Of a stretch of 64,000 nt of DNA, positions 4,459 through 62,973 are shown piece after piece. The notes below the pieces were generated by a model, which was not told the DNA's origin, searched no databases, and saw nothing but the letters and a program-made list of their open reading frames with translations. Source of the DNA: a virus. A program made the translations under genes and the position numbers. The stretch lies in IMG/VR virus record IMGVR_UViG_3300031669_000001, positions 1-64,000 of that record, one strand, 5' to 3'. Within the stretch, counting starts at the first letter, position 1. Every line of letters begins with the position of its first letter.

Positions 4459-5085
4459 TTAAACCTTTAACAGGTTTGGGATGACAGCTCTGCTCATCCA
4501 ATGTTCATCTGTTTGGACGTGTCCCTTGCGAACCCACTTTGCAACCTTCTTGTCAAAGTCGTCAAAGCGAATTTCATCGACTATGCGAACGACGAAACCC
4601 TCTTGCGTGTGTGGATCCAACTCATCAGCCAGATCGTAGAGCACTTGAAGATTAAAGACGCCTCTGTAAAATTCTTCAGGCTGAACGATGCCTAACCTGT
4701 CAAACCAATCCGTCTGAGCGTCGACGCTGAGAGCTACGTTGCGATCATCCCAAATGGAGAAGCCGTAGAAGTAGCTCTTCAAGTCGGTGTAGGGAATTGA
4801 GTGTTGCGCGTACATGTTCTCGCCGCAAATTCTCCAACCATCAGGGATCATGTAGCTCATGTTTCCATGAAAACGTTTGATCCAGTCTCGAGATGGGTGG
4901 TGACGAGAATCCAAGCTGCGCGCGTGGAAGCCGTGATGATAGAGAGTAGTGTTTTCTCCATCCATCTTTTCAGTGACGATGACTTCCTTGCCGATCAGGC
5001 CTACAAGGCTCTCGATCAGGCGGTCATCATTCTGCAGCCCAGGGCTGAATGGAAGATGCATCGTGCGTGGGTATTTGACTTTCAT
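4459..5085 (-). CDS. RNA ligase family protein (PF09414-like nucleotidyltransferase)
   Basis: YPRTMHLPFSPG N-terminus, EKMDGEN motif I (KxDG), EGFVVR motif IV, KWVRKGH motif V. Start moved to the ATG at 5085 (ATGA overlap with the upstream stop, AAGGAG SD). Confidence 0.8.
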   Translation of the reverse strand: MKVKYPRTMHLPFSPGLQNDDRLIESLVGLIGKEVIVTEKMDGENTTLYHHGFHARSLDSRHHPSRDWIKRFHGNMSYMIPDGWRICGENMYAQHSIPYTDLKSYFYGFSIWDDRNVALSVDAQTDWFDRLGIVQPEEFYRGVFNLQVLYDLADELDPHTQEGFVVRIVDEIRFDDFDKKVAKWVRKGHVQTDEHWMSRAVIPNLLKV

Positions 5086-5423
5086 TGCAACTCCTTGTAG
5101 ACGCTGATAGGATATGAATTTGGTACTTCCTTGTACCCACAATTCAACAACCTCAAATGCAATCTAGCATTCAAAATGCTCTCGACAAATACAGCTTCCA
5201 TATCTGCAGCTTTTGCATCAATCTCGGTTTGCGCAAGCCATGCAGTAAATAAGCCGCGTCCACGCTTCTTCTCATCAACATTTATGTTGGCTACATCAAA
5301 GCACTTCTTCACAGTGTCACCGATGCGATGCGCACCACGTCGAACATATATGCTCATGTCGTCATCATGCAACCAGGAATTTCTGAGTCCACTAGCCAAA
5401 AATTCCACAGCAGAAGTGCTCAT
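5082..5423 (-). CDS. possible GNAT-type acetyltransferase
   Basis: KKRGRGLFTAWL resembles GNAT motif A (R/QxxGxG/A). Confidence 0.4.
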   Translation of the reverse strand: MSTSAVEFLASGLRNSWLHDDDMSIYVRRGAHRIGDTVKKCFDVANINVDEKKRGRGLFTAWLAQTEIDAKAADMEAVFVESILNARLHLRLLNCGYKEVPNSYPISVYKELQ

Positions 5424-6835: not shown

Positions 6836-7119
6836 TCGATGATTCCTCGCTTCAAAATTTCTTTAGCCTTGTTACAAAGTTCCGGTTGAATGTACCACAG
6901 AGCTTTCGTCTCTATGATCTTTGTTAGATAACCAACTTTTGATCTCCAGGCTGCAGGTAACGTGTAGAACGCGGAAGATCCTACCAAGTGTCTTCGACCC
7001 CTGTGGATAGCCCACGTCCACTTCCTATCTCCGTTAGGTGAAAGAACTTCTACGTCAACTTCCTTTATCTTCCTACAAGGATGCAACGCTGATATGAGGT
7101 ACATTTTCATTTGGTTCAC
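6832..7119 (-). CDS. hypothetical protein
   Basis: 95-aa ORF with a GTGA overlap with the upstream stop. The start is uncertain (7119, 7110 or 7104). Confidence 0.55.
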   Translation of the reverse strand: MNQMKMYLISALHPCRKIKEVDVEVLSPNGDRKWTWAIHRGRRHLVGSSAFYTLPAAWRSKVGYLTKIIETKALWYIQPELCNKAKEILKRGIIE

Positions 7120-8096
7120 ACGTTAAAGAATGCTGACACGATCGCCTGATTTGCGTTGACAAAATGCCACGCACCATAGAACATCAGACCTATGACACCG
7201 AGCTTAATTCCGAGGGCTATCGCACCATCGGTTTTGATCTCGACAATCTTGTCAGCGATGAAGAAGATGATGAAAGCTCCGACCATCGTAGTCAGTTCCC
7301 TGATACCGTAGATCGCGGCTGTTGTACCAAAGCCGATGAACACGACTGGTGTGATGACATTCATCAGAGCGTAATTTGCTCTGTCGTAGTAGCGACTTGA
7401 CAGGATGAGCAGTCCTACGAATCCTGCAAGACTACCTAACCAAAACGCGCCAGATTGAAACAAGTCAATGATAGGATAATGAATTCCAACTGCTCGATAC
7501 ACGGTGAACAGAATAAGTATGATCACGCTAGCAGATGTTCCACGATAGATAGAATCTTTATCATCGTAACCAAAGGCGTAACAAAGCGGAGTTACGACGA
7601 CTGAGAATCCTAACAGCGAGATGACAGCGGCCATCGTTAAAAAGCCTATCGAAGGCGCCATGAAGACTATAGCGAGAGCACCCCAAACGACAGTCAGAAT
7701 CGTTGAAAAGCGCGTCATGTTAGGTTTGAGTTTACGAACGTGTGCGCTGAAGGAGATAGCACCTGGTATCAGCAGCGATCCAATGATGAGAGCCCATGAT
7801 GAAAAATCGTCTGTTGGACCATGGCCGTGCATCGTATAATATGCCTTAACTATGAGACCCACAGTAAGCACCCACAAGCCCACCTCGATGAATGCAGTTT
7901 GTTCTAGCAAAGCCGCAACGATTCCTTTGAAAATGAGCAAGATCGCAGACGTAAGCAACACTACACCGATCACCCACAAGAAATTTTCAAGACTCACGTA
8001 GGCTGCGGCCTTCTGCAGCGTTGTGAGGCTGGGACATGCAGTATCAGCCAACGCTATCGCCGGCATCAACATCAAACTTGCTAATAATTTTTTCAT
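7116..8096 (-). CDS. polytopic membrane protein with signal peptide
   Basis: MKKLLASLMLMPAIALA signal peptide followed by about 10 hydrophobic helices. Start set at 8096 (ATGA coupling to the 48-aa ORF, AAAGGAAAA SD). Confidence 0.7.
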   Translation of the reverse strand: MKKLLASLMLMPAIALADTACPSLTTLQKAAAYVSLENFLWVIGVVLLTSAILLIFKGIVAALLEQTAFIEVGLWVLTVGLIVKAYYTMHGHGPTDDFSSWALIIGSLLIPGAISFSAHVRKLKPNMTRFSTILTVVWGALAIVFMAPSIGFLTMAAVISLLGFSVVVTPLCYAFGYDDKDSIYRGTSASVIILILFTVYRAVGIHYPIIDLFQSGAFWLGSLAGFVGLLILSSRYYDRANYALMNVITPVVFIGFGTTAAIYGIRELTTMVGAFIIFFIADKIVEIKTDGAIALGIKLGVIGLMFYGAWHFVNANQAIVSAFFNV

Positions 8097-8239
8097 GATT
8101 TTCCTTTTATTTCCTGAATTGGATAAATTACTCCATAGTTTCCACCGGTCTTCTTGCAGACCACCCACTTGAATTGAACTGGGTGACAGCATTTGTCTGC
8201 AAGAGGCACAGCCAAAATATTCTTTCGTTCTTCGCTCAT
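8093..8239 (-). CDS. hypothetical 48-aa protein (not in ORF track)
   Basis: MSEERKNILAVPLADKCCHPVQFKW... with ATGA overlaps at both ends. Confidence 0.45.
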   Translation of the reverse strand: MSEERKNILAVPLADKCCHPVQFKWVVCKKTGGNYGVIYPIQEIKGKS

Positions 8240-9111
8240 ATCTCGAACACCTTATGCTTTACAAAATGTTGTGATTCAAACTCTTGACTCTTGTAGCCGA
8301 CGCAGTTGTTTACCAACAACGTTTCACCCACCAAAGTTTCCTTCTGATAGTGAGTGTGACCGTAGCACCACATCTTGATGTGTGGATTGTCCAAGATCAA
8401 GTCGCTCAGGTCGCTGTGATAGTAACCGTTACCTGCAGTGTTTGTAGCAAACATTGGGTTGCTCAAGCCTGGCATAGGCAAGTGATGAGTGATCACCACT
8501 ATCTTCTTGTCTTTGTTCTGCTCAATGATGATCTTCAGGTAATCACGATGCTTCATGAAAGTTTGCACCCACTTCTCACTCGTGAACCGGCTCCAACCCA
8601 TTTGAGAGTAGCTGTTAGTTTTTAGATCCAAGCTTTTCAAACCTGTATCAAATGCTATCTTGCCATCGTAGCGCATGTAACCCGGCATGTTGTACATCGT
8701 CAACGGATCAAACTTGTTCATGTCAGTCCACAACGTGCAACCAACGAACAACACATCTTCGTCAATCACCACGTCGCAGTCAAGAACCTTGACGTTCATG
8801 ATTCCTAGGTCAGCCAGCATGTTGTTGCACTTCTGACCGCCCTTCACGATAGACAGATACTTTTCAGTAGGCCAGTAGTCATGGTTACCGAGAACAATTA
8901 ACACTCGCTTGAAGTGCTGCGCGACGTTGCTGATCCAGGAATCCTCTGCGTGCATGATGAAGTGAGTACCAATCCACAGATCGCCAGCAAGAATCAGAGT
9001 AGTCTCTGCATCGTCAGGCATCTTCGGCGGGTACCACATGACATCGCGTGCCTCGTAGTGGTCTAAGTGCATGTCGGAATAAACTCGAATCTTCTTCATA
9101 GGTCTGTTCAT
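8236..9111 (-). CDS. calcineurin-like metallophosphoesterase
   Basis: SDMHLDH, AGDLW, GNHDYW, ITHH and GHTH motifs. ATGA overlap with the PurA-like gene. Confidence 0.8.
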   Translation of the reverse strand: MNRPMKKIRVYSDMHLDHYEARDVMWYPPKMPDDAETTLILAGDLWIGTHFIMHAEDSWISNVAQHFKRVLIVLGNHDYWPTEKYLSIVKGGQKCNNMLADLGIMNVKVLDCDVVIDEDVLFVGCTLWTDMNKFDPLTMYNMPGYMRYDGKIAFDTGLKSLDLKTNSYSQMGWSRFTSEKWVQTFMKHRDYLKIIIEQNKDKKIVVITHHLPMPGLSNPMFATNTAGNGYYHSDLSDLILDNPHIKMWCYGHTHYQKETLVGETLLVNNCVGYKSQEFESQHFVKHKVFEI

Positions 9112-10367
9112 AAGGTAAATCTTTCCTTGATATTGTCTCTTGTAGGCCCACGGCTTTCCAACACGTAAGGTAATCCAATTTCACGAGCAAGTGAAACTGA
9201 GAAGTTATCCTTTGACGCACGCTTACGCTTTCCATTTGAAATGTAACGACCTACGTCGTCGAGATGATCAACGCAAGTAACGGCTAGCTTTGGGTTTACA
9301 TTGAAGCTAGAACCAAACACAGAATCTTTCAGATCAACAGCGATGCGATGACGTAGTTCATCGACATCCAAGTTACCATAACGGAACTTTCCTTGGAACT
9401 CATTTGTAAAGTTCGTAGTTTCCTTGATTCCTTTGTAAGGCTTTTCCTTCAACTCGTTTTCCATTGGACCAGCGCCGTGACGCGTCAAGTAGGCTCTAGT
9501 TACGTAGTAGACGTCGATCGCGTTGATTCCAGCTTCCTTGCAGATTTCTCTAACGTTTGTCAGACCGGTGAAGGACTTAGTTACGTGAGGGTGATGACCA
9601 TTCACTTGATCTAGACCGAGACCTTGACCGCCTTCAAATATCAACGAGTCATGCTTGCTCAAATTTTTTGTGTGCGTGATGGATATTGACTTTCCGAAGA
9701 GAATGATGTCTTCTAGGAACTTCCAGATCAAATTATCGTCCATCACCCGCTTCAGCATTTCATGAGTGTAGGGAATTCCGAGTTGTTGTAACCGCAGTGG
9801 AACCCACTCTTTGCGAATCAACTGTAATTTGTAGTGAAGCTCATCAGTTTTATCGTAGATTGAGTTGTAGTAAACGTCATCTGCATTCAGCTTGAAGATT
9901 GATTTCAGGTCAAATAGCTTGCCATCATTCGCAGACACCACTTCACAATTATTTCGATCGATGGTGTCTGTGACACCTAGACCGCAACTTCCATGTTTGA
10001 AATGTTTCTCGCGATACTCATTGACCATCATGTCGTATGGTGTAGACACCATCACTCTTGGATCAACGAACATCTTTGGAATCTTAACACCGGCGCTCTC
10101 AAGAACTGTGCGTTCTTTGAGGTAGATCATCGGGTTAGCGACGAAGTACTTGCTCAGGAATGTATCGGCACCATGAAACGTTCCCGATCCAAAGTGACTG
10201 AAGACGTGTCGATGACCGCCTGGTGTTACCACTGTGTGACCAGCCTGGGCACCACCATTGAATCGAACAACCAGCTTAGATTTTTCTCGATGTACAAGAT
10301 AGTCAGTGATGAGACCTTTACCCTCGTCACCATAGTTGGCGCCTATTACTACGTGTACGTTGCTCAT
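9108..10367 (-). CDS. adenylosuccinate synthetase (PurA) superfamily enzyme, divergent
   Basis: GANYGDEGKG P-loop, NGGAQAGHT, FEGGQGLGLD, TRHGAGP. The TTGRRRR aspartate loop reads NEFQGKFRYG and the TKLD guanine motif reads TCVD. Confidence 0.75.
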   Translation of the reverse strand: MSNVHVVIGANYGDEGKGLITDYLVHREKSKLVVRFNGGAQAGHTVVTPGGHRHVFSHFGSGTFHGADTFLSKYFVANPMIYLKERTVLESAGVKIPKMFVDPRVMVSTPYDMMVNEYREKHFKHGSCGLGVTDTIDRNNCEVVSANDGKLFDLKSIFKLNADDVYYNSIYDKTDELHYKLQLIRKEWVPLRLQQLGIPYTHEMLKRVMDDNLIWKFLEDIILFGKSISITHTKNLSKHDSLIFEGGQGLGLDQVNGHHPHVTKSFTGLTNVREICKEAGINAIDVYYVTRAYLTRHGAGPMENELKEKPYKGIKETTNFTNEFQGKFRYGNLDVDELRHRIAVDLKDSVFGSSFNVNPKLAVTCVDHLDDVGRYISNGKRKRASKDNFSVSLAREIGLPYVLESRGPTRDNIKERFTL

Positions 10368-10552
10368 TTTATCGTCTTCAAAAAGCCTGTTAGCAGGCGT
10401 TCATTGTCATAAGTTCGAGTTGACTGTTTGCGCTTTGGCTTCGCTGCTTCAGCCATCGCTTGCTTTTTCTTCGAACACGCATCATGATTGCCTTTTCGCC
10501 GAGAACGATGGCAAATTTCGCAGATATTTAGATTGTTCGAGTTGAATTGCAT
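10364..10552 (-). CDS. small basic Cys/His protein
   Basis: 62-aa ORF with CEICH...HDAC, first gene after promoter 10582..10610. Confidence 0.5.
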   Translation of the reverse strand: MQFNSNNLNICEICHRSRRKGNHDACSKKKQAMAEAAKPKRKQSTRTYDNERLLTGFLKTIK

Positions 10553-10581
10553 TGTGATTACCTTTTAATTTCGATGGGTTA

Positions 10582-10610
10582 ATTTTATCACAATATGAAT
10601 AAAAAGTAAA
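10582..10610 (-). promoter_or_regulatory. early sigma70-like phage promoter
   Basis: -35 TTTACT, 17-nt spacer, -10 TAAAAT. Confidence 0.65.
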
Positions 10611-10618
10611 CACTTAAA

Positions 10619-10652
10619 TGAAAAAAGAGCAAGAATTTCCATCCTTGCTCTT
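10619..10652 (-). terminator. rho-independent terminator
   Basis: Stem AGAGCAAG/CTTGCTCT with an 11-nt loop, followed by a T-run on the minus strand. Lies directly after the vWA gene. Confidence 0.7.
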
Positions 10653-10670
10653 TTTGATAGGTGCTACGAT

Positions 10671-11633
10671 TTAAACAGAGGCTTTTGCTTTGACTTTCTT
10701 CTTGTCGAAGCGAACTACTCCGCCGCGCTTCACTGCAACGTCTGTAGAGCTCGACATGCCAGCGACTGCTTTCGCTACCACGACCGAGGTATCTCCAGAC
10801 CAGGTAGCTGCAACCACTGCAGCCGATGATCCTTCGACCACTTGAATCGCCGATACGATCACTTCAGACAGCTTGGTATAATCTGCCAGAGGCAGAACGC
10901 GTTCAGCTCCGATCAAGTTGTTCCAGGATTTGATGACGGAATCTCTTCCATACATACAACCATTTCCTTGTTCAATCACAACGTGGAAGATGTGGTACAT
11001 CTTCGAAGCCATCGCGAACAGTTCCTTCGAGCTGATGAAATCAGGAACGTCATCACCGATGAACCTTTTGATCTGTGCAGGATTCAGACCAGGCGGTGCA
11101 GGTTCATCGCCTACTGTGAACAGATAACCCTTCTTGCCGCGCTTTTCGAAGCAATCGATAGAAGTGTGTTGAGCTGCGAAGTACCATGGCAGATCATACG
11201 ATTCGAAGTTATTGCCGCCGCCACGACCTTCCAAGAAGATGTCTGTCAGCTGTTCGATGATTCGATTGTCTGCCTCAAACTGAGACACCTGCAGCGGGTA
11301 ATTGTCACAGTAAGCATCACCATTGGCCATGAACATCAGGTGTGGATCAGATACAGGTTTGCGATCCAGAATTTCATTGAACAGAACACCCAGGCCTTCG
11401 CGAGCGATACTTTCAGCGATCATACCCATGGATCCAGTAACGTCCAAGGTGACGATGATGGCTGTAGAATTTGGATTGTCAACTGAATCGCGAGATTCAC
11501 GGACTGCAACGTTCAACGGGCTCAGGTGATCTTTGGCTGCGCTTTTGGTTGCAAAAATTTTATCGGCGGACTTACCGACGGTGCTTCTAGAGTATGAGTC
11601 CCAGTCCTTGGAACTCCAGCTGCCTCCACCCAT
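10671..11633 (-). CDS. von Willebrand factor A (vWA) domain protein
   Basis: IIVTLDVTGSMG is a MIDAS DxSGS-type motif. The C-terminal tail is Ala/Val/Ser-rich and basic. Confidence 0.7.
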   Translation of the reverse strand: MGGGSWSSKDWDSYSRSTVGKSADKIFATKSAAKDHLSPLNVAVRESRDSVDNPNSTAIIVTLDVTGSMGMIAESIAREGLGVLFNEILDRKPVSDPHLMFMANGDAYCDNYPLQVSQFEADNRIIEQLTDIFLEGRGGGNNFESYDLPWYFAAQHTSIDCFEKRGKKGYLFTVGDEPAPPGLNPAQIKRFIGDDVPDFISSKELFAMASKMYHIFHVVIEQGNGCMYGRDSVIKSWNNLIGAERVLPLADYTKLSEVIVSAIQVVEGSSAAVVAATWSGDTSVVVAKAVAGMSSSTDVAVKRGGVVRFDKKKVKAKASV

Positions 11634-11634
11634 T

Positions 11635-11982
11635 TTAGTTCTCCTTTTTAAAGATAAAGTATGATGATTCTGTTTCGTAATAAGGTTGTTTTAAATACTG
11701 CACTTTCCAACCTGCCGTTTCAAAGAGTGGTTCAACGTCGAGCCAACCTTTGTTGTATGCATCTACATCTCCAAACTCTTCCTTATGAGCTTCAATGTAA
11801 GATTGAATCTGTTTGTAGACAGTCGTCTGTTTCACCTCGGCGTAATTGCTAGTTGAATTAAAATTCTTGGCGATTTCCGCGTTGAAGATTCCAATTACAA
11901 AGTATGGAATCTTCTGAGCCTTTTCCAACTTAATCTGACGCTTAAAGCTCAGTACTTCATCAGGTCCTATCGGTTCCATCAT
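11635..11982 (-). CDS. hypothetical protein
   Basis: 115-aa ORF lying between the J-domain and vWA genes, coupled to both. Confidence 0.6.
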   Translation of the reverse strand: MMEPIGPDEVLSFKRQIKLEKAQKIPYFVIGIFNAEIAKNFNSTSNYAEVKQTTVYKQIQSYIEAHKEEFGDVDAYNKGWLDVEPLFETAGWKVQYLKQPYYETESSYFIFKKEN

Positions 11983-13025
11983 TTGCTCCCATAAAGATCA
12001 TCTGCGGTCAACTTCAAATCCACGAACCTCCGAGGACCAAAGCTGTCTATTACTGTCTTGGTGTGCCAAGTCTTGTACTCTTCGTAGGCATCACCTTTGC
12101 TCATAGTTCTCAACCAACTTATCAGTTGAGGTGGAATGCTCTTGTTCATGAGCAGCTTTGAGCCTACGATGTCACCAAGTAACTGTCTAGCGGTAGCGTG
12201 AAGAAGTTCCAGATCGATTTTTGGATCAGCTTTTTGAGCATCCAGAACATCTTCTGGTGAAAATTCTACAGCTACTCCAGGTAACGCGTCAAGCGGTTTC
12301 CCTATCTCTCGAGCATACCACCAACCACCAAGCAGGTGAACAGTGTGTTCTCCTGGTGAGATCAGACAGGAATCTACTGTGATTCCAGCGTGCATCAAAT
12401 TTGCATACTTTAGATAGCAGCAGATGCTATACAGACGGCTGATCATCCAAGCAACATGCTTTGGATCAACCTCGCCGTTGAAGTGAGAGAGAACATCGCT
12501 CATCAACAATTGGTCAGGAGTCTTCTTGATCAGCATCACCAAGCGCTCGTCAGTGACCAACTCAGAATGAATTTCAGGCAACAGCTTCTTTACCTCATTC
12601 TTCATCTTGTCATCTGCAAACTTGAAGTTCTTGATGATGCGTTGAGCGTTCTTGTAGAGGTCTTCATTGTCCTTGTACAGAGAGTACGCAACGACGGTAT
12701 CACCGACGTAGATGTCTCCTAGCTCGAATGCTCTGGTGGCTTTGTACTTCAATTTGAATTTTTTGCCATCCACAGTTTTGAATACAATGACTCCTGGAGT
12801 GACCCAGGTGTCTGTGGCGAGTCTGAAGACGGCGAGATTATAGACTACATTAACGTGCGCCATAACGTCTTCATCGACCATTGGGTTCTGATCGGGGTGC
12901 CAGGCGGAGACGAGTTTACGATACTCTACCTTGGCGACTTCAGTGTCGGCGGTGAACAATTGTTCAGGTTGGTCTACAGGGATGGCTAAGATGTCATCGG
13001 CTGTGAGCGTTGAGATGTCTTTCAT
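11979..13025 (-). CDS. J-domain protein fused to a kinase-like (probably pseudokinase) domain
   Basis: YRKLVSAWHPDQNP carries the HPD J-domain signature. The C-terminal region LMHAGITVDSCLI resembles a degenerate HxDxxxxN catalytic loop. Start set at the ATG 13025 (GAGGA SD). Confidence 0.6.
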   Translation of the reverse strand: MKDISTLTADDILAIPVDQPEQLFTADTEVAKVEYRKLVSAWHPDQNPMVDEDVMAHVNVVYNLAVFRLATDTWVTPGVIVFKTVDGKKFKLKYKATRAFELGDIYVGDTVVAYSLYKDNEDLYKNAQRIIKNFKFADDKMKNEVKKLLPEIHSELVTDERLVMLIKKTPDQLLMSDVLSHFNGEVDPKHVAWMISRLYSICCYLKYANLMHAGITVDSCLISPGEHTVHLLGGWWYAREIGKPLDALPGVAVEFSPEDVLDAQKADPKIDLELLHATARQLLGDIVGSKLLMNKSIPPQLISWLRTMSKGDAYEEYKTWHTKTVIDSFGPRRFVDLKLTADDLYGSK

Positions 13026-13075
13026 CACTTCCTCACTTTGTAAAGGCTCTTGAAGAAACTCCTTCTTCAAGATAG

Positions 13076-13122: not shown

Positions 13123-13266
13123 TTATTTGTTGCAACCTTGAGAAGTAGCAGCGGTGCCGACTTTACCATGCCCAGTAAGAACGGGGATAGTTACAGCGGC
13201 AATGATTCCGATGATTGCAATGACGATCATCAGTTCTGTCAAGGTAAAACCTTTAGTTGCTTTCAT
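13123..13266 (-). CDS. 47-aa prepilin-like peptide (class III signal peptide only)
   Basis: MKATKG|FTLTELMIVIAIIGIIAAVTIPVL... with Gly-1, Phe+1 and Glu+5. AAGGAG SD. Not in the ORF track. Confidence 0.65.
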   Translation of the reverse strand: MKATKGFTLTELMIVIAIIGIIAAVTIPVLTGHGKVGTAATSQGCNK

Positions 13267-13324
13267 TTCATTCTCCTTAGTATATTCACAATCAGGCGCC
13301 GAGCAGCCACATAGTGGACAATGG

Positions 13325-13465
13325 CTAGAACTTCAAGTGTTGTGTTTGATTCATTGGGATGATCTTGTCATGTTTCAAAAACGGAGTGACGAGAGCGGTG
13401 ATGATGATCAGAATTGCGACAACGATCAACATCTCGATTACTGTAAAGCCTTTGTTTGCTTTCAT
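13325..13465 (-). CDS. 46-aa prepilin-like peptide (class III signal peptide only)
   Basis: MKANKG|FTVIEMLIVVAILIIITALV... with Gly-1, Phe+1 and Glu+5. AAGGAG SD. Not in the ORF track. Confidence 0.65.
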   Translation of the reverse strand: MKANKGFTVIEMLIVVAILIIITALVTPFLKHDKIIPMNQTQHLKF

Positions 13466-15194: not shown

Positions 15195-16610
15195 CTATTT
15201 GTCATCCCTCAGGCAGGTAAAGAATGGGAAACGCAGAGCGTAGGTGTCAGAGTTTTCAGCCAGGGATAGTTCTTGACATTCGATAGTGCAGGTCTCGCCG
15301 ATAAACTTGTCTTGGTTGTTCCAAGCGTAGGTGCGGAAGAACTCATCGTTAGATACTCCGCTTGCCAGGATAGCTGCGATGTCGATCTTGTTGGCTTTTG
15401 CGAACTTCGCCAACCAAGCTTTGTAGTTCTTGTGGCTGACCTTGATGCCGCCGCAACGAGACTTGATCTTGTTACCATTTTCGTCCTTGCCTTCAACGAA
15501 GAAGCCACCGAGACGGCCTTCATTCTTGGTACCGGCGCGGCCTTCGAAGCAACCAACGATCTTGACGTCCACGTCGATGACAGGCTTCCACTTCGACCAA
15601 GTAGCTGTACGCTTCTTGTTGTTCCATTCATACTTGCCGCTGAGGTACTTGATGATCAGACCTTCATCTTGACCAGCGATACCGAGCTCAGTAACTTCGG
15701 CGTAGAATTCTTGGGCTTCTGCCAAGTTTTTCAAGATGCGATACTTTGACTTCACGATTGTGGTCAGGTTGAGCTTCTTGATTACCTTTTCAAGATCACC
15801 AGATCGTGCATATTGAGGCTTAGGGCAGCTTTGAGCTTCCCATTCAGTGAGAGTCATCGTGTCGAATACGTAGAAGCGCATTCCAGATTTGTCACCTTTG
15901 GAACCTTTTGCTTTCGCTGTAGCAGACATTCCACCATCAGCCAAAGCTTCACCATCGACGATGATAGGTTGACCAACTTCTTGTTCCATCTTGATGAGTT
16001 CATCATCGAACAAACCATTCCATTGATCTGCAGATTTGCCGGAGCGAGACAGGTACTCGACTTCACCGTTCTGAACCTTTGCAACCAAGCGCATACCGTC
16101 ATATTTGACTTCGCCCATGCACGGGAATTCCCAACGATATTTTGGGTAAACGATTTCACCCTTTGCGTTCTTACGATGCTCGATCTTTTCGCAGAGCATC
16201 AACTCGAAGCCAGGAATCTTCAACTGAGGGTAAACTTTTTCGAAGGTGTTGGTGTTACCACCGCACTTCAGGTCTTTCAGGAGGACACGTTCGAGGACGG
16301 AAGCAGTACGTTCATCGTACAGTCCGAGGACGGCAGTTACTGCATTCTTTGCAGCGTTGCCAGTCAGAACTCGATCATTAAGTTGGTCTAGGAGTTCGAA
16401 GAAGAGCTTGAAAGAACCATTGCGTCCATCCAAGTTGCCGAATGCCTGTGGTTGTTCCCACTTGCGAATACCAAAGACACGATAAGGATTTTCAGTTTCC
16501 AGCAACAGACGAACACCGTCTGCATCCAGGCCGGAAAGTGCTTCGAATTTTTCTTTCTTCGTTGAAATCTTTTCAGCTGTAAGAATTGCATCTGCGAAGG
16601 ACTTTGCCAT
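15195..16610 (-). CDS. ATP-dependent DNA ligase
   Basis: EVKYDGMR motif I, EGLIIK motif IV, WSKWKP motif V, then an OB-like C-terminus. Start at ATG 16610 (AGGAGA SD). Confidence 0.85.
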   Translation of the reverse strand: MAKSFADAILTAEKISTKKEKFEALSGLDADGVRLLLETENPYRVFGIRKWEQPQAFGNLDGRNGSFKLFFELLDQLNDRVLTGNAAKNAVTAVLGLYDERTASVLERVLLKDLKCGGNTNTFEKVYPQLKIPGFELMLCEKIEHRKNAKGEIVYPKYRWEFPCMGEVKYDGMRLVAKVQNGEVEYLSRSGKSADQWNGLFDDELIKMEQEVGQPIIVDGEALADGGMSATAKAKGSKGDKSGMRFYVFDTMTLTEWEAQSCPKPQYARSGDLEKVIKKLNLTTIVKSKYRILKNLAEAQEFYAEVTELGIAGQDEGLIIKYLSGKYEWNNKKRTATWSKWKPVIDVDVKIVGCFEGRAGTKNEGRLGGFFVEGKDENGNKIKSRCGGIKVSHKNYKAWLAKFAKANKIDIAAILASGVSNDEFFRTYAWNNQDKFIGETCTIECQELSLAENSDTYALRFPFFTCLRDDK

Positions 16611-16638
16611 TGATAATCTCCTGTTTTCCAATAAGGTA

Positions 16639-21205: not shown

Positions 21206-22390
21206 TCATCGTGAACCTCTCAAGTTATAAAATTTGCGCAGCCATTCTACCATCCACGCGTCGAACTTCTTCATAAATTCAGCGTTACACTCTGGAAGGT
21301 CTGTTGTTTTTTCCAGATCCTTTAGCTCGTCAAGCTTTGAAGCAAGCTCTTCCTTGATAGGATCGAGTGGAAGTTCTCCACGCTTGATTGACAGGAGGTG
21401 GTTTACGTAATTTTCATCAAATGGGAACGACAGCTTCCGAGTTGACAGGATTTGAAGACCCTCATCAACGATGCGCAGCGCGTGCATGGTAGCCTTCCAA
21501 TCAACGTTGTTTGCAGTCGCAGCGTCGGCACGAGATCCATATTTCTTCTCAAGAGCGTGAACAACTTTGAGGGTCTGGATCAAACTGTTTGTGAACGGTA
21601 GGGTCTTCTCGAGGATCACAGCGCAAGGCTTCATCACACCGCCACCGATGTCATATTCTTCCAGGCGGAAGTACTTTGGAAACTTCTTGGCTAGATCGTT
21701 GAGCAGGCCGGAGTACCGAGGAGTCTGATAGATTTCGCTCAGCTTCATCTCATCTTCTTTGTAGTAGACGTCAGCGTCACCTATGATCACTTGAAGTTCA
21801 CGCACAGCGTTCAGCCTCTCACCCTTGAATGAGTAAAGAGAAGCTTGGTTGACAACGTAACCCATCATCGCTTTGATGTTAGACGTCAGGAATTTGGTGC
21901 GAAGTTCACGCACGAACTGTACGAAGAGAGGAACTTCGTAGTCGTAATCGTCAAACTGAACATCACGAATTGCAATCATAAAGTCATACATTGGTCCATC
22001 AACTGCAGAAGTTCCAATGCAGTATCGTCCAACCTCTCCACGCGGATCGAAGATCTTCTGTTCAGCGTGATCGCCTTCCATAGCGAACGCAAGTTCGATT
22101 GCGTATGTTTGACCTTCAACGAAGTGACGAGCGAAGATTTGCAGAGGGATGAACTCTTCATCCACGTCATCTGCAGAGTTTCGGGTGTGCTCTACTTTGT
22201 TTGTCTTCTTAACCTTCGCTTCGAGCTTCTTACCTAACAACATATCGTCAAGATCAGGCAGCACGATATGCTTGATGTCGCGATCAGAGGCTGGAGTAGA
22301 AGTTCCGTAGAGCTTCGATCCATAGAGAGTTGTAAAAAGTTTTTTCACGTTAGGAGGTTCTTTCTTTTGACGGTTCCACATTTTGTACAT
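21206..22390 (-). CDS. Pol-beta superfamily nucleotidyltransferase (RlaP/PF10127-like)
   Basis: LYGSKLYGTSTPASDRDIKHIV matches the GS...DxD nucleotidyltransferase signature. Confidence 0.55.
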   Translation of the reverse strand: MYKMWNRQKKEPPNVKKLFTTLYGSKLYGTSTPASDRDIKHIVLPDLDDMLLGKKLEAKVKKTNKVEHTRNSADDVDEEFIPLQIFARHFVEGQTYAIELAFAMEGDHAEQKIFDPRGEVGRYCIGTSAVDGPMYDFMIAIRDVQFDDYDYEVPLFVQFVRELRTKFLTSNIKAMMGYVVNQASLYSFKGERLNAVRELQVIIGDADVYYKEDEMKLSEIYQTPRYSGLLNDLAKKFPKYFRLEEYDIGGGVMKPCAVILEKTLPFTNSLIQTLKVVHALEKKYGSRADAATANNVDWKATMHALRIVDEGLQILSTRKLSFPFDENYVNHLLSIKRGELPLDPIKEELASKLDELKDLEKTTDLPECNAEFMKKFDAWMVEWLRKFYNLRGSR

Positions 22391-44878: not shown

Positions 44879-45439
44879 CTATAATTTTATGAAGTCTGTG
44901 ATCTCGATGTCGTACTCGACGGGATCGACTTCATGTAGACCGAGAAGATACAGTAAGTAGCTTGAACATGAACTTCCACGTCCTACTCCCCAGATGACTT
45001 TCTTTTCCTTCATCACGTCTATCACGTAGATGAGAGTTCTTAGAACATCGTCTAGCTTAAGCTGCTTGAACATCCAGATTTCTGTAGAGAGGCGTTCAAC
45101 ACGTTTCTCATAGAGATCATCTTTCTCAATCCGATCGACCAACCCAATGAGGTAATCTTCGAGATTCAGATCATATTTATAGCGATCGGGCAGCTTCCAT
45201 TCTGGAGGGAACTTAACGTTGCATTCTGTCTTAATCTTCAGCTCATGGTCGCTGATTGAGTTATAGGCGAGGATTTCAGGAGTGATTGATGTGACATATA
45301 ACTTCTCGATACCGTGCGTCTCAGATGACATCCTGAGTATGTACGAGACGATTGAATCAGGGTCTACAGAAATTGTACCATCTGGCCAGAGCAGATGGTC
45401 TTCAACTACTATCGGAAGGAGCTCACTTGAGGGCTTCAT
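44879..45439 (-). CDS. DNA polymerase III alpha (DnaE)-like N-terminal fragment
   Basis: WGVGRGSSCSSYLLYLLGLHEVDPVEYD..TDFIKL aligns by eye with [35 protein letters not shown]. The ORF stops just before the catalytic Asp motif. There is no PHP domain. Confidence 0.6.
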   Translation of the reverse strand: MKPSSELLPIVVEDHLLWPDGTISVDPDSIVSYILRMSSETHGIEKLYVTSITPEILAYNSISDHELKIKTECNVKFPPEWKLPDRYKYDLNLEDYLIGLVDRIEKDDLYEKRVERLSTEIWMFKQLKLDDVLRTLIYVIDVMKEKKVIWGVGRGSSCSSYLLYLLGLHEVDPVEYDIEITDFIKL

Positions 45440-46505
45440 CGACGAGTCTCTTTAACCAGCCAAGGTCAGCTACAACGTCAGTTTGAGGTGGATTGAGCAT
45501 GTCCCATTGTTGGATCTGTTGTAGTGCAGTGCGAAGCTTCATAACTTCAGAAGATTCACCCTTTCTGAATTTTGTAACTGCTTCCACAAATTCTTTATCC
45601 GTCTTTGCTTTTAGACGGGTGCGTGGCAACTTGTCTGCTAATTCTAAGATGAGTGGAAGCTTTGCAAGCTTCATTCTCCACTCAAGTGGAATTCCATCTT
45701 CGCCGTAAAATGCTCCTGCAACTTGACCGCAAATAGCAGCTGTGGTGTCTGCATCATCACCGAGATTAGCAGCCTTTAGGATCGCATCTCGAAAATTGTC
45801 TGTCGTGTAGAAACACCAAAGAGCAGCTTCAAGGCTTTGAATAACGTAACCAGATCCCACGATCTCTTTTTCTGACTTGTCGACATAGGTTCCATCTGCA
45901 ATGTCTTGAATGCTCTTTGACATAAAGCTGTCATGTTGACAGAATAGAATTTCTTCTTTGTTCAAATAGTCAGAGTGTAGAGCGTTGAAGATGATAGCTC
46001 CTAACAACTTACAAGCTTCAATGCACTGAGGTGCAGAGTGAGTAGTCCTAGAGCTCAACCCTGAATTGAACACCGCTAAAGTTCTATTGTCATGAAAGAA
46101 CATTGGAACAGGTGCGAGACGCATGATGCTACCATTGCCTAGAGAGTAATCATCGTGCCACGCAACTTCTGAACCGATTTCTTGAAAGTCTCTAAGAGCT
46201 CTCCGAGTAGTTCCACCAATGTCAAAGCAGTGACCGTTGCTGCTCATGTAACCGAGATTGAGCCAATCCACATACTTTTGAAGCTGATCGACAGCATCCA
46301 TTCCACCTTTGTCTACCAAGCTCTGAGCTAAACAGAGAGCCATCGAGGTGTCATCTGTCCATTGACCAGGCTCGAGGTTAAATGCACCACCGCCTACCAT
46401 GTCAGTGACAGGTTCAAATTCACCTCGAGTCTGAAACTCAACAGTTGTACCTACTGCATCGCCGCATGCAAGTCCTAACAACGCACCTCGAAATTTATCG
46501 TTCAT
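45423..46505 (-). CDS. ADP-ribosylglycohydrolase (ARH/DraG family)
   Basis: FRGALLGLACGDAVGT, WTDDTSMALC, FDIGGTTRRAL, GNGSIMR, GDDADTTAAICGQVAGAFYG. Confidence 0.85.
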   Translation of the reverse strand: MNDKFRGALLGLACGDAVGTTVEFQTRGEFEPVTDMVGGGAFNLEPGQWTDDTSMALCLAQSLVDKGGMDAVDQLQKYVDWLNLGYMSSNGHCFDIGGTTRRALRDFQEIGSEVAWHDDYSLGNGSIMRLAPVPMFFHDNRTLAVFNSGLSSRTTHSAPQCIEACKLLGAIIFNALHSDYLNKEEILFCQHDSFMSKSIQDIADGTYVDKSEKEIVGSGYVIQSLEAALWCFYTTDNFRDAILKAANLGDDADTTAAICGQVAGAFYGEDGIPLEWRMKLAKLPLILELADKLPRTRLKAKTDKEFVEAVTKFRKGESSEVMKLRTALQQIQQWDMLNPPQTDVVADLGWLKRLVDEALK

Positions 46506-46597
46506 TCTTTTGCCTTTATTATGTACAGATAGCACAGCCCTAAAGCTACAGCGATAACAGAACCGCCTAAAGCTCCACTTAGAGCAGCAACTGTCAT
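46502..46597 (-). CDS. 31-aa hydrophobic peptide
   Basis: MTVAALSGALGGSVIAVALGLCYLYIIKAKE with an ATGA overlap with the ARH start. Confidence 0.35.
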   Translation of the reverse strand: MTVAALSGALGGSVIAVALGLCYLYIIKAKE

Positions 46598-53221: not shown

Positions 53222-53908
53222 ATGTATCACTTCACATATCAAACAACAAATCTTATCAATGGTCATATTTATATTGGAGTACACTCAACTCTATTATTAA
53301 ATGACGAATATCTTGGTTCTGGTAAAATACTCAAACAGGCAATCTCAAAATATGGAAAAGAACATTTCAAAAGACAAATTTTATGTTTTTATGATTCATT
53401 TGAGAAAGCACTACAGGCAGAGAAAGAGATCGTAACAGAAGAATTTATCAGCAGGCCAGATACTTATAATCTAAATATTGGAGGTCACGGCTCCTGGCAT
53501 CATAGACGCGGAATTAAAATGTTAGACGAAACGAAACGAAAAATATCTGCAAAATTAAAGGGGCGAGAATTCTCAAAAGAACACAAATCTAAATTAGGTC
53601 ATATTAAAACTATAGAAGAACGAGAAAGAATTTCTAAGGCATTAAAGGGAAGATCTTTTTCAGAAGCTCATAAACAAAAGATAAAAGAATCTCATGCAAA
53701 CGTTTCTGGAAAAAATAATCCAATGTTTGGAAAAGGACCAACAAAAGGTTCTTTTAATAGCGAAAATCATCCCCGTGCAAAAAAGATTACTATAGACGGT
53801 GTTACTTATTCTTCAGGGCTTCAAGCTGTTAAAGCTCTCGGTAGAGCTCGCGTCTATAAATTTGTCAAGTTGCGCCGTGATGATCAACAGGCTGGAATTC
53901 AAGCTTAG
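53222..53908 (+). CDS. GIY-YIG homing endonuclease with NUMOD3-like repeats (+ strand)
   Basis: HFTYQTTNLINGHIYIGVH, then repeated K..S..LKGR.FSxEHK units. AT-rich. Its 3' end overlaps the convergent gene by 44 nt. Confidence 0.8.
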   Translation: MYHFTYQTTNLINGHIYIGVHSTLLLNDEYLGSGKILKQAISKYGKEHFKRQILCFYDSFEKALQAEKEIVTEEFISRPDTYNLNIGGHGSWHHRRGIKMLDETKRKISAKLKGREFSKEHKSKLGHIKTIEERERISKALKGRSFSEAHKQKIKESHANVSGKNNPMFGKGPTKGSFNSENHPRAKKITIDGVTYSSGLQAVKALGRARVYKFVKLRRDDQQAGIQA

Positions 53909-54527
53909 ACATTATATTCTCGACTTCATTAAAACTGATTGGATAGAAATTGTGAGAATCAACACCAACATCCAAAATTTTCCCCTTGAAAGGATATTTT
54001 AATCCACCATGAGAATGGCCATGGAGCATAAACGATGAATGATGAGCTTTATTCCATGTCAGCATCGCGTAGTGACTCATCACGATCATCTGGTTGCCAA
54101 CGTTGATCTCGAGATAGTCAACGCACTTCTCAAACTTCGATTGCAGGAAGTTTGACATCTTGATTCCCTTGTCATGGTTCCCATAGACCAAGATCTTCTT
54201 GCCGTTTAGCTGATCAAGGATGCGACCGGTCTTTGCTTCATCGTAGAATGCAATGTCGCCGATCATATAGACGGTATCATCAGGTTGAATTCTGGAATTG
54301 TGTTTACGGATCATCTCTGTGTCCATGACCTTGACTGCTTCATACAGAGAATTTTTGTAGATGCGCTTGAGTTGATCGACGGTGGATGATCCACTGTATC
54401 GACTTGCAACTGCGTCATCGTAATCCCGCTTGTGTTTGATGAGTGCAGCGTCTGCGAACGGACGCTTGCAGTACCAGATAACGTTGCCGTGTCCGTAATG
54501 TTGATCGCTTGTGAAAAATATTGCCAT
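53865..54527 (-). CDS. calcineurin-like metallophosphoesterase
   Basis: FFTSDQHYGH, IGDIA, YGNHD, MSHY and HGHSHGG motifs. Confidence 0.8.
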   Translation of the reverse strand: MAIFFTSDQHYGHGNVIWYCKRPFADAALIKHKRDYDDAVASRYSGSSTVDQLKRIYKNSLYEAVKVMDTEMIRKHNSRIQPDDTVYMIGDIAFYDEAKTGRILDQLNGKKILVYGNHDKGIKMSNFLQSKFEKCVDYLEINVGNQMIVMSHYAMLTWNKAHHSSFMLHGHSHGGLKYPFKGKILDVGVDSHNFYPISFNEVENIMSKLEFQPVDHHGAT

Positions 54528-58823: not shown

Positions 58824-59023
58824 GAATCAGGCCCACAATCAATTCGCCAGGGACACACTATCAAGCACGCAGTTGAGCAGTCATCTTCTCCGTGACAAGG
58901 CGGAGCTTTATCACCACGAAGTGATTTGATCTCCTCCAATAGCTTGAGTCTCTCAGGAGAGTTGTGAGCTCCTGTATTGCTCAAGAATGCCTCTTCGTCC
59001 AACAGGTCTTGTAAAATGCTCAT
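58820..59023 (-). CDS. small Cys-rich protein
   Basis: 67 aa. The C-terminus reads PPCHGEDDCSTACLIVCPWRIDCG. Confidence 0.5.
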   Translation of the reverse strand: MSILQDLLDEEAFLSNTGAHNSPERLKLLEEIKSLRGDKAPPCHGEDDCSTACLIVCPWRIDCGPDS

Positions 59024-60318
59024 AGAAAGTTCATGTCATCTACGATCTTGCGACTGTAGAGCTTCTCGTTGATGTAGTTCTTTTCTTTAGGTGTAAAGAA
59101 TCCGCCCACCTTAGCGATGATCTTGACGATCTCGTGGAAGTTTGTTTCTTTGCGAGCATCTTTTCCACCTATACCCCAGAAGATCCTGATCAAAGTCTTT
59201 TCCTGACAATTGAAAAGTACGTCTACACATCTATTTGCCAGCTTTGCTACGAGGTTGTGCTTTGTCGCGCTCAAGCCTCTGATGTCGTTTTCAAGTGAAC
59301 CACCATTCTTGTATAGCAGGTCAAGTCTAACGTTGTTTATGAGAGCTGCGGTACCTTGATTCCCCTTATCGTCTGGAAGTTTATTGATCAAATCTTCCAG
59401 AGAATTTACAACTTCAAAACCCTTCTGCCTAGCGTACACAAACTCAGTGAACGGTTCTACAAGCTCCTTAGGCATTTGCCTTCCATGCTTCTTGAAGAAG
59501 TCCACAGCTACTGGGTCGTTAGCTTTTACAAGGTCAAGCAGCTTCGTAGCGTTGTTTATGTCTGCGACGAACGCTCCCGCTTCCGCGTCATTCGTGACCT
59601 TCTTGATCTGCTCGTGGAACGGTAAGCTCTTCAGCATGCTTCGAAGAGCTGAGACATTTGATTCGGTAGGTAGGAAGTCCTCCAAGCGGCAACCATTTGC
59701 GTACGCTGCCGCTGCGTAGTCAACTCGGCGAGGAGACACCATTCTTTGAATGTCACCAGGCAAATCCTTCCACCATTGAATGAAGATCATCCCGGTGGTC
59801 GGGAATTTTGCGTTGAAGTAGTCCTCGTCTATCTTGTATGGAACTTTGATTGTAACCTGGAAGCGATCAAGTTGTGCGGGATCGATGTGATTGACTGAGT
59901 AGGTGTCGTCATCATCTTCTGGATTGATAGCTGCCCAGATAACTTTCAGATTGTTGAGCTTGTGTCCGTTGATTGACTTGAACTGAATCAGCTCCATGAC
60001 GGCGTTAATCACCTTGTCAGGTGCGCGGTTAAACTCGTCGAGCATGATCGCTTCTATCTCGTCGTTCTCACACCAAGCAGGCCTCACCAACTCAAGAGTT
60101 CGCTTGTTTACACCATCATCGATGACCTTAGGTACCCCTACAAAGTCAACCCAAGGATCGAGGGTACTTGCTGAGAAGTACTTCCAGCGATCGCCGTAAA
60201 GCTCAGTGAAAACTTCCTTAATGACGGTAGTCTTGCCGACACCGTGGAGCCCACTCAGGAGAACGTTATAGTTTAGGATAGCGTACTGTGTCAGCCTAGC
60301 TTTGTTGATGATTGCCAT
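59020..60318 (-). CDS. MoxR/AAA_5-type ATPase
   Basis: LLSGLHGVGKTT Walker A and AIMLDEFNRA Walker B. First gene after promoter 60346..60374. Confidence 0.8.
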   Translation of the reverse strand: MAIINKARLTQYAILNYNVLLSGLHGVGKTTVIKEVFTELYGDRWKYFSASTLDPWVDFVGVPKVIDDGVNKRTLELVRPAWCENDEIEAIMLDEFNRAPDKVINAVMELIQFKSINGHKLNNLKVIWAAINPEDDDDTYSVNHIDPAQLDRFQVTIKVPYKIDEDYFNAKFPTTGMIFIQWWKDLPGDIQRMVSPRRVDYAAAAYANGCRLEDFLPTESNVSALRSMLKSLPFHEQIKKVTNDAEAGAFVADINNATKLLDLVKANDPVAVDFFKKHGRQMPKELVEPFTEFVYARQKGFEVVNSLEDLINKLPDDKGNQGTAALINNVRLDLLYKNGGSLENDIRGLSATKHNLVAKLANRCVDVLFNCQEKTLIRIFWGIGGKDARKETNFHEIVKIIAKVGGFFTPKEKNYINEKLYSRKIVDDMNFL

Positions 60319-61757: not shown

Positions 61758-62321
61758 TTACGCCATTGCTAAGCCAAACGCTGAATTTGCAGCTGCCAAC
61801 GCCAGACCTCTAAAATATTCTACGGTTTGAGTCGTATCTGGTCCGGCGCCTGTAAGATATAAGATTTCCACGATGAAATCCTGCGATGGAAATGGTGAGC
61901 CTGGAGTCTCTGGAGCACCGGTCATTGAAGCTGGACTGTAAAGCGCGACATAGTTGAACCCTGTCTGTCCAGCAGCCGGAAGTGGCTGAGCCATACGAGT
62001 GATTCCTGCTACGGTAGCAGTTCCTGTACCCGAGCCTACAACGTGAGGATACATTCCATAAGGAGGATAATCACCAGGGGGGTTAGCTCTTGCTACGAAT
62101 GTAACACCGACTGTATTAGAAGCTGCACCGATCAAAGTAAAGTCTGTAGTGCCGACAGTCGCTATAGTGTACGCAACGCCTACTACAAATTGGCCCGCAA
62201 CAACAGGGGCATCATCGTAGCTCCATTGCTTGTCTGCTGACATGTTATCCAGCGTAAAAGTTACAAAGCGCGGATCAGCGTGTCCGTAGATAGTTAAAAT
62301 TTTTCCTACTTGGGTTGTCAT
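61758..62321 (-). CDS. late Ala/Gly/Thr/Pro-rich protein (probable virion/surface protein)
   Basis: 187 aa with GATAAATA 29 nt upstream and a GAGGG SD. Confidence 0.65.
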   Translation of the reverse strand: MTTQVGKILTIYGHADPRFVTFTLDNMSADKQWSYDDAPVVAGQFVVGVAYTIATVGTTDFTLIGAASNTVGVTFVARANPPGDYPPYGMYPHVVGSGTGTATVAGITRMAQPLPAAGQTGFNYVALYSPASMTGAPETPGSPFPSQDFIVEILYLTGAGPDTTQTVEYFRGLALAAANSAFGLAMA

Positions 62322-62349
62322 GGTTAGACCCTCATTAATGTTCTAGTTG

Positions 62350-62357
62350 TATTTATC
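62350..62357 (-). promoter_or_regulatory. T4-type late promoter candidate
   Basis: GATAAATA. Confidence 0.4.
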
Positions 62358-62973
62358 TTGAGTTCAAGAACGATTGATAATTATAGTCGAAGTATAGTAA
62401 ATCATTTCGAAATGCGCGTTCTACAACTTTGATTGTGTCTTCACTGTATAACTTTGACCTATCTTTCAATTCATTCTTTTTAAGATTGATATTATCATGA
62501 CTTAAGTCATTCTTCAGATTATATTTTTTGCAAAATTTATCATAATCTTCAGATAGATTTTCAAATTTTAATATGTCTGTAGCTATGACTTTATCATTAT
62601 TTTCGACAAAATCATAACAAGGATTAAATTGGATTCTTTTACCTGCAAATTTTAATTCATAAGAAAGCACAAACTGTTCAAATGTCATATCAGGATTGAT
62701 ATCCGTTCTACCCAATTTTTCATATTTTAATTGTTCTTGAGTTTGATTAGTTTTAGGTCTAAATTGATAAAATTCAAAAATTGAATAGAGTCTATCAAAA
62801 GGATTCCTAACAATTGACATTATTGGTAAATGTGAATCTTCTTCTATTAAGACATTTTTAATAAATCCATGAGTTAAATAGCATTTACGTAAAAATCGCG
62901 CATTTTGTTTATCTAAACTGTTACTAATAGATACACCTGCCGTTTTGGGTATATGAATAAAAATTATTTGCAA
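62353..62973 (-). CDS. sulfotransferase (Sulfotransfer_2-like)
   Basis: [15 protein letters not shown] resembles the PAPS 5'-phosphosulfate-binding loop. Very AT-rich. TTG start overlaps the upstream gene by 10 nt. Confidence 0.55.

Follow-up and report, generated by a model that had tools for sequence, protein, structure and literature searches.

The locus described here raises a single question: what reaction is run by a divergent homolog of adenylosuccinate synthetase (PurA) in a viral genome, and with which neighbouring genes does it act? The gene lies at 9108..10367 (minus strand) in a stretch of 64,000 nucleotides from IMG/VR record IMGVR_UViG_3300031669_000001 (hereafter the window). 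The window represents 64 kb of a 345-kb source genome, and the gene searches in this phage cover these 64 kb. The genome length, the phage replication genes and the lack of a close INPHARED relative together suggest a jumbo phage: megablast searches of positions 7000-10600 and 1-25000 against INPHARED returned no match and no close annotated relative. All the open reading frames (ORFs) of an earlier annotation of this DNA (the original prediction) were present on the minus strand. We consider it fairly probable that the enzyme is a ligase of a third PurA-superfamily clade, in which a nucleotide carbonyl would be activated with guanosine triphosphate (GTP) and attacked by an amine other than aspartate, and that it would work with a von Willebrand factor A (vWA) protein and a J-domain protein in a module tied to nicotinamide adenine dinucleotide (NAD+) and ADP-ribose.

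The 419-residue protein matched Pfam PF00709 (E=1.8e-41) over profile positions 1-317 of 416 only, and its Pfam and PHROG matches ended at approximately profile position 317-337. The best PHROG match was phrog_1211 (1.1e-66), labelled '2-aminooxy adenylosuccinate synthetase', a name that related phage genes carry as an automatic label. Three more specific models scored below threshold: 119.4 bits against a cut-off of 402 for the NCBIfam PurA equivalog NF002223, 110.2 bits against 395.55 for TIGR00184, and 57.2 bits against 300 for the NCBIfam PurZ model NF038379. Judged on sequence, the protein is a member of a third clade of the PurA superfamily that is neither PurA nor PurZ. Database relatives exceeded 5,600 at E<=1e-10, and the closest 120 (41-75% identity) were found on viral contigs and on megabase-scale bacterial contigs. 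One clade member, P0109 (586 amino acids, eight member sequences), is extended at the N-terminus by about 190 residues of unknown type.

For comparison across genomes, 80 viral and 80 bacterial loci were fetched, ORFs were called mechanically, and the neighbour genes of all loci were clustered to find recurring families; neighbour counts are given over 170 loci. Homologs were aligned to E. coli PurA and the functional positions were read from the alignment, with 148 homologs that have a partner gene forming the residue map (the partnered homologs). Loci with the H273 + Q301 signature were termed clade-type (154 fetched loci), and 11 loci were of the canonical PurA type.

The window protein was aligned with E. 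coli PurA and phiVC8 PurZ using MAFFT, and with the PurA chains of the PDB using HMMER. Both alignments reproduced the core motifs named in the original prediction (GDEGKG, AGHT, FEGxQG and TRxGAGP) and made the same calls at its three divergent loops, which had been read by eye. IGTTGRGIGP is replaced by HGSCGLGVTD, the PurA aspartate loop GATTGRRRRTGWLD by TNEFQG-KFRYGNLD, and the guanine motif TKLD by TCVD. At R131, T300/T301, R303 and R305 (E. coli numbering) the window protein has L, F/Q, K and F, with R304 deleted, and it carries the clade signature D-Q-C-L-H-Q-(K)-F.

These changes, presented earlier as features of one gene, proved to be clade-wide. The partnered homologs retain D13 (145/145), K16 (145), H41 (146), Q224 (147/148) and T239 (147/148). 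Equally uniform are the replacements V273->H and T301->Q (147/147 each) and the deletion of R304 (148/148). N38 has become Q in 145 of the 148, R305 is L, F, I or M in 139, T300 is W, F or Y in 137, T129 is C in 132 (the signature allows C or V at 129) and R131 is V, M, L or I in 131; K331 is replaced by C (74) or H (69), together 143 of 148. The trans-subunit R143 position is not conserved (G, E, A or D). Among the ligands of the inosine monophosphate (IMP) 5'-phosphate, N38, T129 and R143 are thus changed and T239 alone is kept. The roles of Asp13, His41 and Gln224 lie in the deprotonation of IMP and in phosphoryl transfer, not in plain GTP hydrolysis. The aspartate-contacting side chains are all replaced throughout the clade, and the phosphoryl-transfer residues are essentially invariant. 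In PurA, R303 touches the IMP O2' as well as free aspartate; aspartate is also touched by the T-T-G-R loop, which is strictly conserved in PurZ, and an arginine of the second subunit pairs with the phosphate (PMC8342488).

Since the kept phosphoryl-transfer core adjoins a pocket that is replaced and yet invariant, this pattern points to changed substrates and not to decay. The enzyme probably runs an unknown nucleotide reaction, and the suspicion that it is no normal PurA and uses another amine donor gained ground from the clade-wide map. The further suggestion that ATP stands in for GTP lost ground: in the guanine pocket, D333 is kept in 118/148 and S414 in 112/148 partnered homologs, and both are kept in the window protein. 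Because these two residues are mostly retained, GTP is the more likely donor, and its use by the enzyme is plausible.

PurZ resembles the clade: it too is a PurA paralog carried by phages, its C-terminal region is shortened and it has the same PHROG label. PurZ, however, has exchanged Asp13 for Ser and kept the aspartate loop, whereas the clade has kept Asp13, lost the aspartate loop and acquired other partners. All 147 of 147 phage PurZ/PurZ0 proteins in a 2026 survey have Ser in place of the catalytic Asp13, and the same survey left other phage PF00709 homologs uncharacterised (PMC12884076). The P-loop reads GSTGKG in phiVC8 PurZ and GDEGKG in the window protein. PurZ/PurZ0 genes are accompanied by genes for DatZ, MazZ or DutZ and for a polymerase specific to Z; tblastn searches of the 64-kb window with phiVC8 PurZ, DatZ and DpoZ gave nothing significant (MazZ and DutZ were not queried). 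Given the NCBIfam scores, the retained Asp13 and the absence of a PurZ, DatZ or DpoZ match in the window, the PurZ-type PHROG label is misleading for this protein.

The conserved genomic context lies upstream of positions 7116-10552, the interval to which the original prediction was confined, and was missed there. The gene at 10671..11633 (minus strand) encodes a protein of 320 amino acids with a vWA fold of the metal ion-dependent adhesion site (MIDAS) type. The profile of its family found no match among PDB sequences, and the fold emerged only by structure prediction and Foldseek: the AlphaFold2 (AF2) model (pLDDT 84.7, pTM 0.85) retrieved integrin beta-I and other vWA domains with E-values from 4e-6. 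A DxTGS...GD motif of the MIDAS type is invariant in the family. The family is large (>6,700 close matches; 839 clusters at 50% identity, E<=1e-30), and in the sources searched it has neither a Pfam domain nor a name nor a described function. The window member shares 50-54% identity with bacterial partners and starts MGGGSW. Nearly every family member starts Met-Gly, those with TTG or GTG start codons included; this start leads into a conserved extension about 45 residues long, and library matches align from residue 1. An apparent exception to the Met-Gly start in locus L016 was rejected, as the match was a second vWA gene and the adjacent partner starts MGSGRF.

A homolog of the vWA gene was found in 150/170 loci. 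It is present in 146/154 clade-type loci against 0/11 canonical PurA loci; among the eight clade-type loci that lack it, five are cut by contig ends and three have no vWA gene within 8 kb. The gene typically stands directly upstream of the PurA-like gene in the same orientation; the two usually overlap or have 0-100 bp between them. A natural fusion was identified in a Bdellovibrionales metagenome-assembled genome (CAYTAW010000032.1; L140:6444-9311, plus strand): its 956 residues comprise a vWA part (residues 12-471, interrupted by about 160 inserted amino acids) and a PurA-like part (residues 513-955), and the N-terminus MGGGSY is kept. The genes are arranged likewise in mycobacteriophage Catera ('kinase' gp249, gp250, gp251 and the PurA-like gp252). 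The vWA protein is a near-obligate genomic partner of the PurA-like enzyme. Elsewhere in the window, an AAA+ ATPase gene (59020-60318, minus strand) gave weak matches to phrog_1297 and phrog_249 (MoxR/CobS-like), and its product could pair with a vWA protein.

An optional third member of the module, a protein with a J-domain and a protein-kinase fold, is encoded at 11979..13070 (minus strand; ORF of 363 amino acids, database call of 348 amino acids with a start near 13025). Its homologs stand upstream of the vWA gene in 77/170 loci, about half. The family profile matched J-domains (3e-7) and Ser/Thr kinases (approximately 1e-4) in the PDB, and the AF2 model (pLDDT 93.6) showed a complete kinase fold, with the DNAJB1-PKA chimera and Aurora/PKA kinases as the top Foldseek matches. 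The WHPD motif is near-invariant. In the kinase part, the HRD Asp is present in 9/37 members and the DFG position reads GGW, so the protein is probably a pseudokinase; it also probably recruits Hsp70/DnaK.

Between the J-protein and vWA genes lies p115 (11635..11982, minus strand; 115 amino acids, unknown function), which overlaps the J-protein gene by ATGA and ends 2 nucleotides before the vWA gene. It is lineage-specific, with homologs in two loci only, and had no Pfam, NCBIfam or PADLOC match. Pfam and NCBIfam likewise gave no match for the vWA partner, the J-protein or the membrane protein described below, and PADLOC gave none for any of the six proteins run. In phages without the J-protein, the slot directly upstream of the vWA gene is filled by families of about 243 amino acids (14 viral loci) and about 198 amino acids (13 loci), both unknown, for example L038:6366-7094, L040:5707-6417, L078:6503-7096 and relatives. 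Neither family had a Pfam match. They were considered as divergent J-proteins and rejected when the J-protein hidden Markov model gave no match. In the window, the ENA gene calls place two tiny ORFs (46 and 47 amino acids; approximately 13123-13465, minus strand, corresponding to L001 6903-7245) immediately upstream of the J-protein gene; both carry prepilin-type N-terminal methylation motifs (PF07963).

In the clustering of neighbour genes, the most frequent family after these partners was a regulator of the NrtR type (Nudix + NrtR winged helix). In approximately 22 bacterial loci it directly adjoins the module, either upstream in divergent orientation or just downstream; these loci come from four phyla (Pseudomonadota, Acidobacteriota, Bacillota and Actinomycetota). 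Regulators of this type reportedly sense ADP-ribose (PMC9503650). In several phages the module is embedded among genes of NAD+ salvage (NAMPT and/or a bifunctional NMNAT-Nudix): NAMPT follows it at 52-368 bp in L038, L040, L041/L042 and L080, four further loci have NAMPT within about 6 kb, and NMNAT-Nudix genes lie upstream of it. Because the PurA-like proteins of these salvage loci share only 31-46% identity, about eight independent phage lineages are represented.

The phage salvage cassettes correspond to NARP2/NadV-NatV (NAMPT + NMNAT-Nudix), and at least eight diverged phage lineages carry the vWA/PurA-like pair within or beside such a cassette. NARP2 as described consists of two genes and requires no PurA-like or vWA protein; about 1.1% of all phage genomes carry it (NARP1/2 paper). 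The composition of NARP1 (Adps + Namat) and of NARP3 (PnuC + NadR-like) is unrelated to that of the module, and NARP3 was ruled out as a match for it on these components. Neither the NARP1/2 paper nor the NARP3 paper mentions the module. Systems centred on ADP-ribosylglycohydrolase (Iyer et al. 2022, PMC9503650) share with it a Nudix-HTH (helix-turn-helix) regulator, a predicted ADP-ribose sensor, and a vWA Mg2+-dependent peptide-binding protein, sometimes with a calcineurin-like phosphoesterase. They are, however, built on the glycohydrolase, and their description includes neither a PurA-family enzyme nor a kinase-fold protein with a J-domain. An ADP-ribosylglycohydrolase homolog is encoded in the window at 45423..46535 (minus strand; phrog_6572, 2e-77), 35 kb from the module.

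Taken together with the residue map, these associations allow a mechanism to be proposed. A catalytically competent enzyme would bind GTP and move its gamma-phosphate onto a nucleotide carbonyl (the 6-oxo group in PurA), and an amine other than aspartate would then displace the phosphate from the activated nucleotide. In the pocket that would receive this amine, the arginines that bind carboxylate are gone, and hydrophobic, aromatic, Gln and His side chains have come in. Ammonia is a candidate amine and, more speculatively, so is the free N-terminal glycine of the vWA partner. The PurA-like enzyme is predicted to act, through physical contact, with the upstream vWA protein and not with the downstream phosphoesterase and membrane protein genes; the part of the J-pseudokinase would be to recruit Hsp70, and the module as a whole may act in NAD+/ADP-ribose homeostasis or counter-defence.

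In its boldest form this mechanism would have the enzyme activate a 6-oxopurine-type nucleotide with GTP and join it to the free alpha-amine of the vWA N-terminal glycine, in a module that answers to, or restores, NAD+/ADP-ribose: in phages against NAD+-depleting immunity, and in bacteria under NrtR control. The loss of the arginines, the replaced pocket and a Met-Gly start that is near-universal and in register would fit such a conjugate. We nevertheless regard this form as a long shot; if true, it would add a new kind of protein-nucleotide conjugate.

Several points weigh against the ligase reading. In this phage, an intrinsic-terminator-like hairpin (10615..10655, minus strand; 15-bp stem + U-run) lies between the vWA gene and the genes for p62 (described below) and the PurA-like enzyme. 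It folds at -20.9 kcal/mol (z = -4.17), and 0/200 shuffles were equally stable. A candidate sigma-70-like promoter (10582..10610, minus strand; TTTACT-17-TAAAAT with extended TG) was found upstream of p62 by consensus scan; promoter-like sites in the region did not exceed shuffle numbers, and the candidate is weak. Because both elements intervene, the vWA and PurA-like genes are probably transcribed separately here. Three untruncated clade-type loci lack the vWA gene, as noted above. The tblastn searches (E<=0.01) for NAMPT, NMNAT-Nudix and NrtR found none in the 64-kb window, so the NAD+ link is an association seen in other genomes. Both substrates of the enzyme are guesses, and the aspartate-binding roles given to R131, T301 and R305 are those generally described for E. 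coli PurA. Finally, the partners are of scaffold or chaperone type, which fits a protein-directed or a purely regulatory role as well as it fits a metabolic one.

The last point leads to the chief alternative, in which the PurA-like protein would be a GTP switch or scaffold in a vWA + Hsp70 co-chaperone machine and would ligate nothing. By sequence, neither the vWA/MIDAS protein nor the J-domain pseudokinase is an enzyme, and vWA proteins are generally known to pair with P-loop NTPases, MoxR-vWA being the analogy. MoxR-vWA and CobS/CobT-like pairs and TerY-P triads are known to share with the module a MIDAS-containing vWA protein that is genomically tied to a P-loop NTPase and has a kinase-fold protein close by. 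The NTPase of the present module nonetheless has the PurA fold (SIMIBI class) with a preserved ligase site, whereas the MoxR/CobS type is an AAA+ ATPase; and its kinase-fold protein carries a J-domain and is without catalytic aspartates, unlike that of vWA-kinase-phosphatase triads. A switch would also leave unexplained why Asp13, His41 and Gln224, with their roles in IMP chemistry, are essentially invariant, and why new invariant residues (H273, Q301 and an aromatic at 300) occupy the former substrate pocket, a pattern of changed substrate. We judge this alternative unlikely.

The unit proposed in the original prediction would instead be a pathway, in which the PurA-like enzyme makes a modified nucleotide, a metallophosphoesterase (MPE) processes it and a membrane protein exports or imports it. 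The ATGA coupling on which it was founded is real, and the chain is longer than had been noted: ATGA overlaps join p62 to the PurA-like gene, the PurA-like gene to the MPE gene, the MPE gene to p48, and p48 to the membrane protein gene, four in succession. The product of p62 (10364..10552, minus strand; 62 amino acids) has a CxxC...HxxC pattern and is ATGA-coupled to the PurA-like start; it is not an ENA gene call, matched phrog_17140 weakly (1.7e-6) and had homologs in two loci only. The MPE (8236..9111, minus strand; 291 amino acids) is calcineurin-like (PF00149, 2.5e-11; phrog_1649, 1.9e-40) and lineage-specific. Then follow p48 (8093..8239, minus strand; 48 amino acids), ATGA-coupled on both sides, and the polytopic membrane protein gene (7116..8096, minus strand). 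The membrane protein had been described as having ten transmembrane segments; its polytopic nature was borne out, with about 9-10 hydrophobic segments by hydropathy, so that the figure of ten is approximate. Its start was revised: the ORF spans 7116..8192, but the start is the MKKLLASLMLMPAIALA codon at 8096, in agreement with the ENA gene call, and not 8192, which gives 326 amino acids from an MKKLL start with a signal-peptide-like N-terminus.

Besides the overlaps, the pathway gains from three other viral loci, among them the closest viral relative (L011), where an MPE homolog follows the PurA-like gene after 335-658 bp, and from the recurrence of calcineurin-like phosphatases in ADP-ribose-processing systems (PMC9503650). 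The wider sample tells against it. An MPE gene is near the module in 6/170 loci, and among these loci no homolog of p48 or of the membrane protein was found beyond the window's own contig. The 126 phage records with an MPE homolog belong mostly to genera that the PurA-like search did not return, as expected of a common stand-alone phage gene, and start/stop overlaps are generally common in dense phage genomes. The genes downstream of the PurA-like gene are lineage-specific additions, and the pathway is, in our estimation, improbable. This phage has several phosphatase-type genes, which include a second phosphoesterase (53865-54527, minus strand; phrog_547, 5e-47) and a weak dual-specificity phosphatase (DSPc) match at approximately 286-780 of the window (L001 19588-20082).

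That the gene encodes a divergent but genuine adenylosuccinate synthetase, acting as an auxiliary metabolic gene that boosts adenosine monophosphate, would account for the PF00709 match, the retained core and the many records named 'adenylosuccinate synthase'. PurA (EC 6.3.4.4) does have the same fold and shares Asp13, Lys16, His41, Gln224, Thr239, TRxGAGP and a C-terminal SxGP. Its aspartate positions R131, T301, R303, R304 and R305 are, however, replaced or deleted in the clade, with R131 and R305 hydrophobic, and its C-terminal domain is about 45 residues longer. The PurA equivalog score is far below its cut-off, and the 11 canonical PurA genes form a separate class without the vWA partner, so that a genuine PurA is very improbable. 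A PurZ-type enzyme of the 2-aminoadenine (Z-genome) pathway, the framing in which the gene was originally placed, is hardly credible despite its best PHROG match and the labels of its phage relatives, since Asp13 is kept, the PurZ model is matched at 57 bits against 300, the aspartate loop that PurZ keeps is lost, and the window gave no significant match to the Z-pathway queries.

The fold of the third clade, and that phages carry 'PurA-like' genes, were already known. The distinct clade, its lock to the vWA protein and often a J-pseudokinase, and its association with NrtR and NAD+ salvage are not described in the literature searched, which excluded subscription-only sources. Within the same limits, a search on the function of the triad or of the clade returned nothing relevant, and a paper on Vi01-like phages holds annotation lists only. 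The clade is present in more than 200 mycobacteriophages and in many Vibrio, Rhizobium and uncultured jumbo phages; clade and vWA partner each number thousands of members across bacteria and phages. The rewired active site points to new chemistry inside a textbook enzyme family, and the module, which recurs next to ADP-ribose-sensing regulators and within phage NAD+ salvage cassettes, may be a part so far missing from the picture of how phages and bacterial immune systems contend over NAD+. Automatic annotation routinely names phage PurA homologs PurA or PurZ; for clade members these labels are probably wrong, and Z-genome predictions built on them would therefore be false positives. Tractable carriers include cluster C mycobacteriophages (Catera gp249-gp252) and Vibrio phages.

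Other genes of the window and of the related loci were also recorded. On the minus strand, the window encodes an RNA ligase (PF09414), an ATP-dependent DNA ligase (phrog_114) and a nucleotidyltransferase (phrog_388), at 4459-5142, 15195-16631 and 21206-22390, respectively, a cluster in the vicinity of the module; RNA ligase genes lie within 8 kb of the module in six other viral loci. A DUF2828/DUF7788 protein of about 530 amino acids is encoded approximately 1 kb downstream of the PurA-like gene in L055, L060, L062, L063 and L076, and about 4.4 kb upstream in L069; this group consists of phage contigs of approximately 150-170 kb. The window contains no tRNAs, and its G+C content falls to 0.337 at 62001-64000, against approximately 0.44 in the remaining window.

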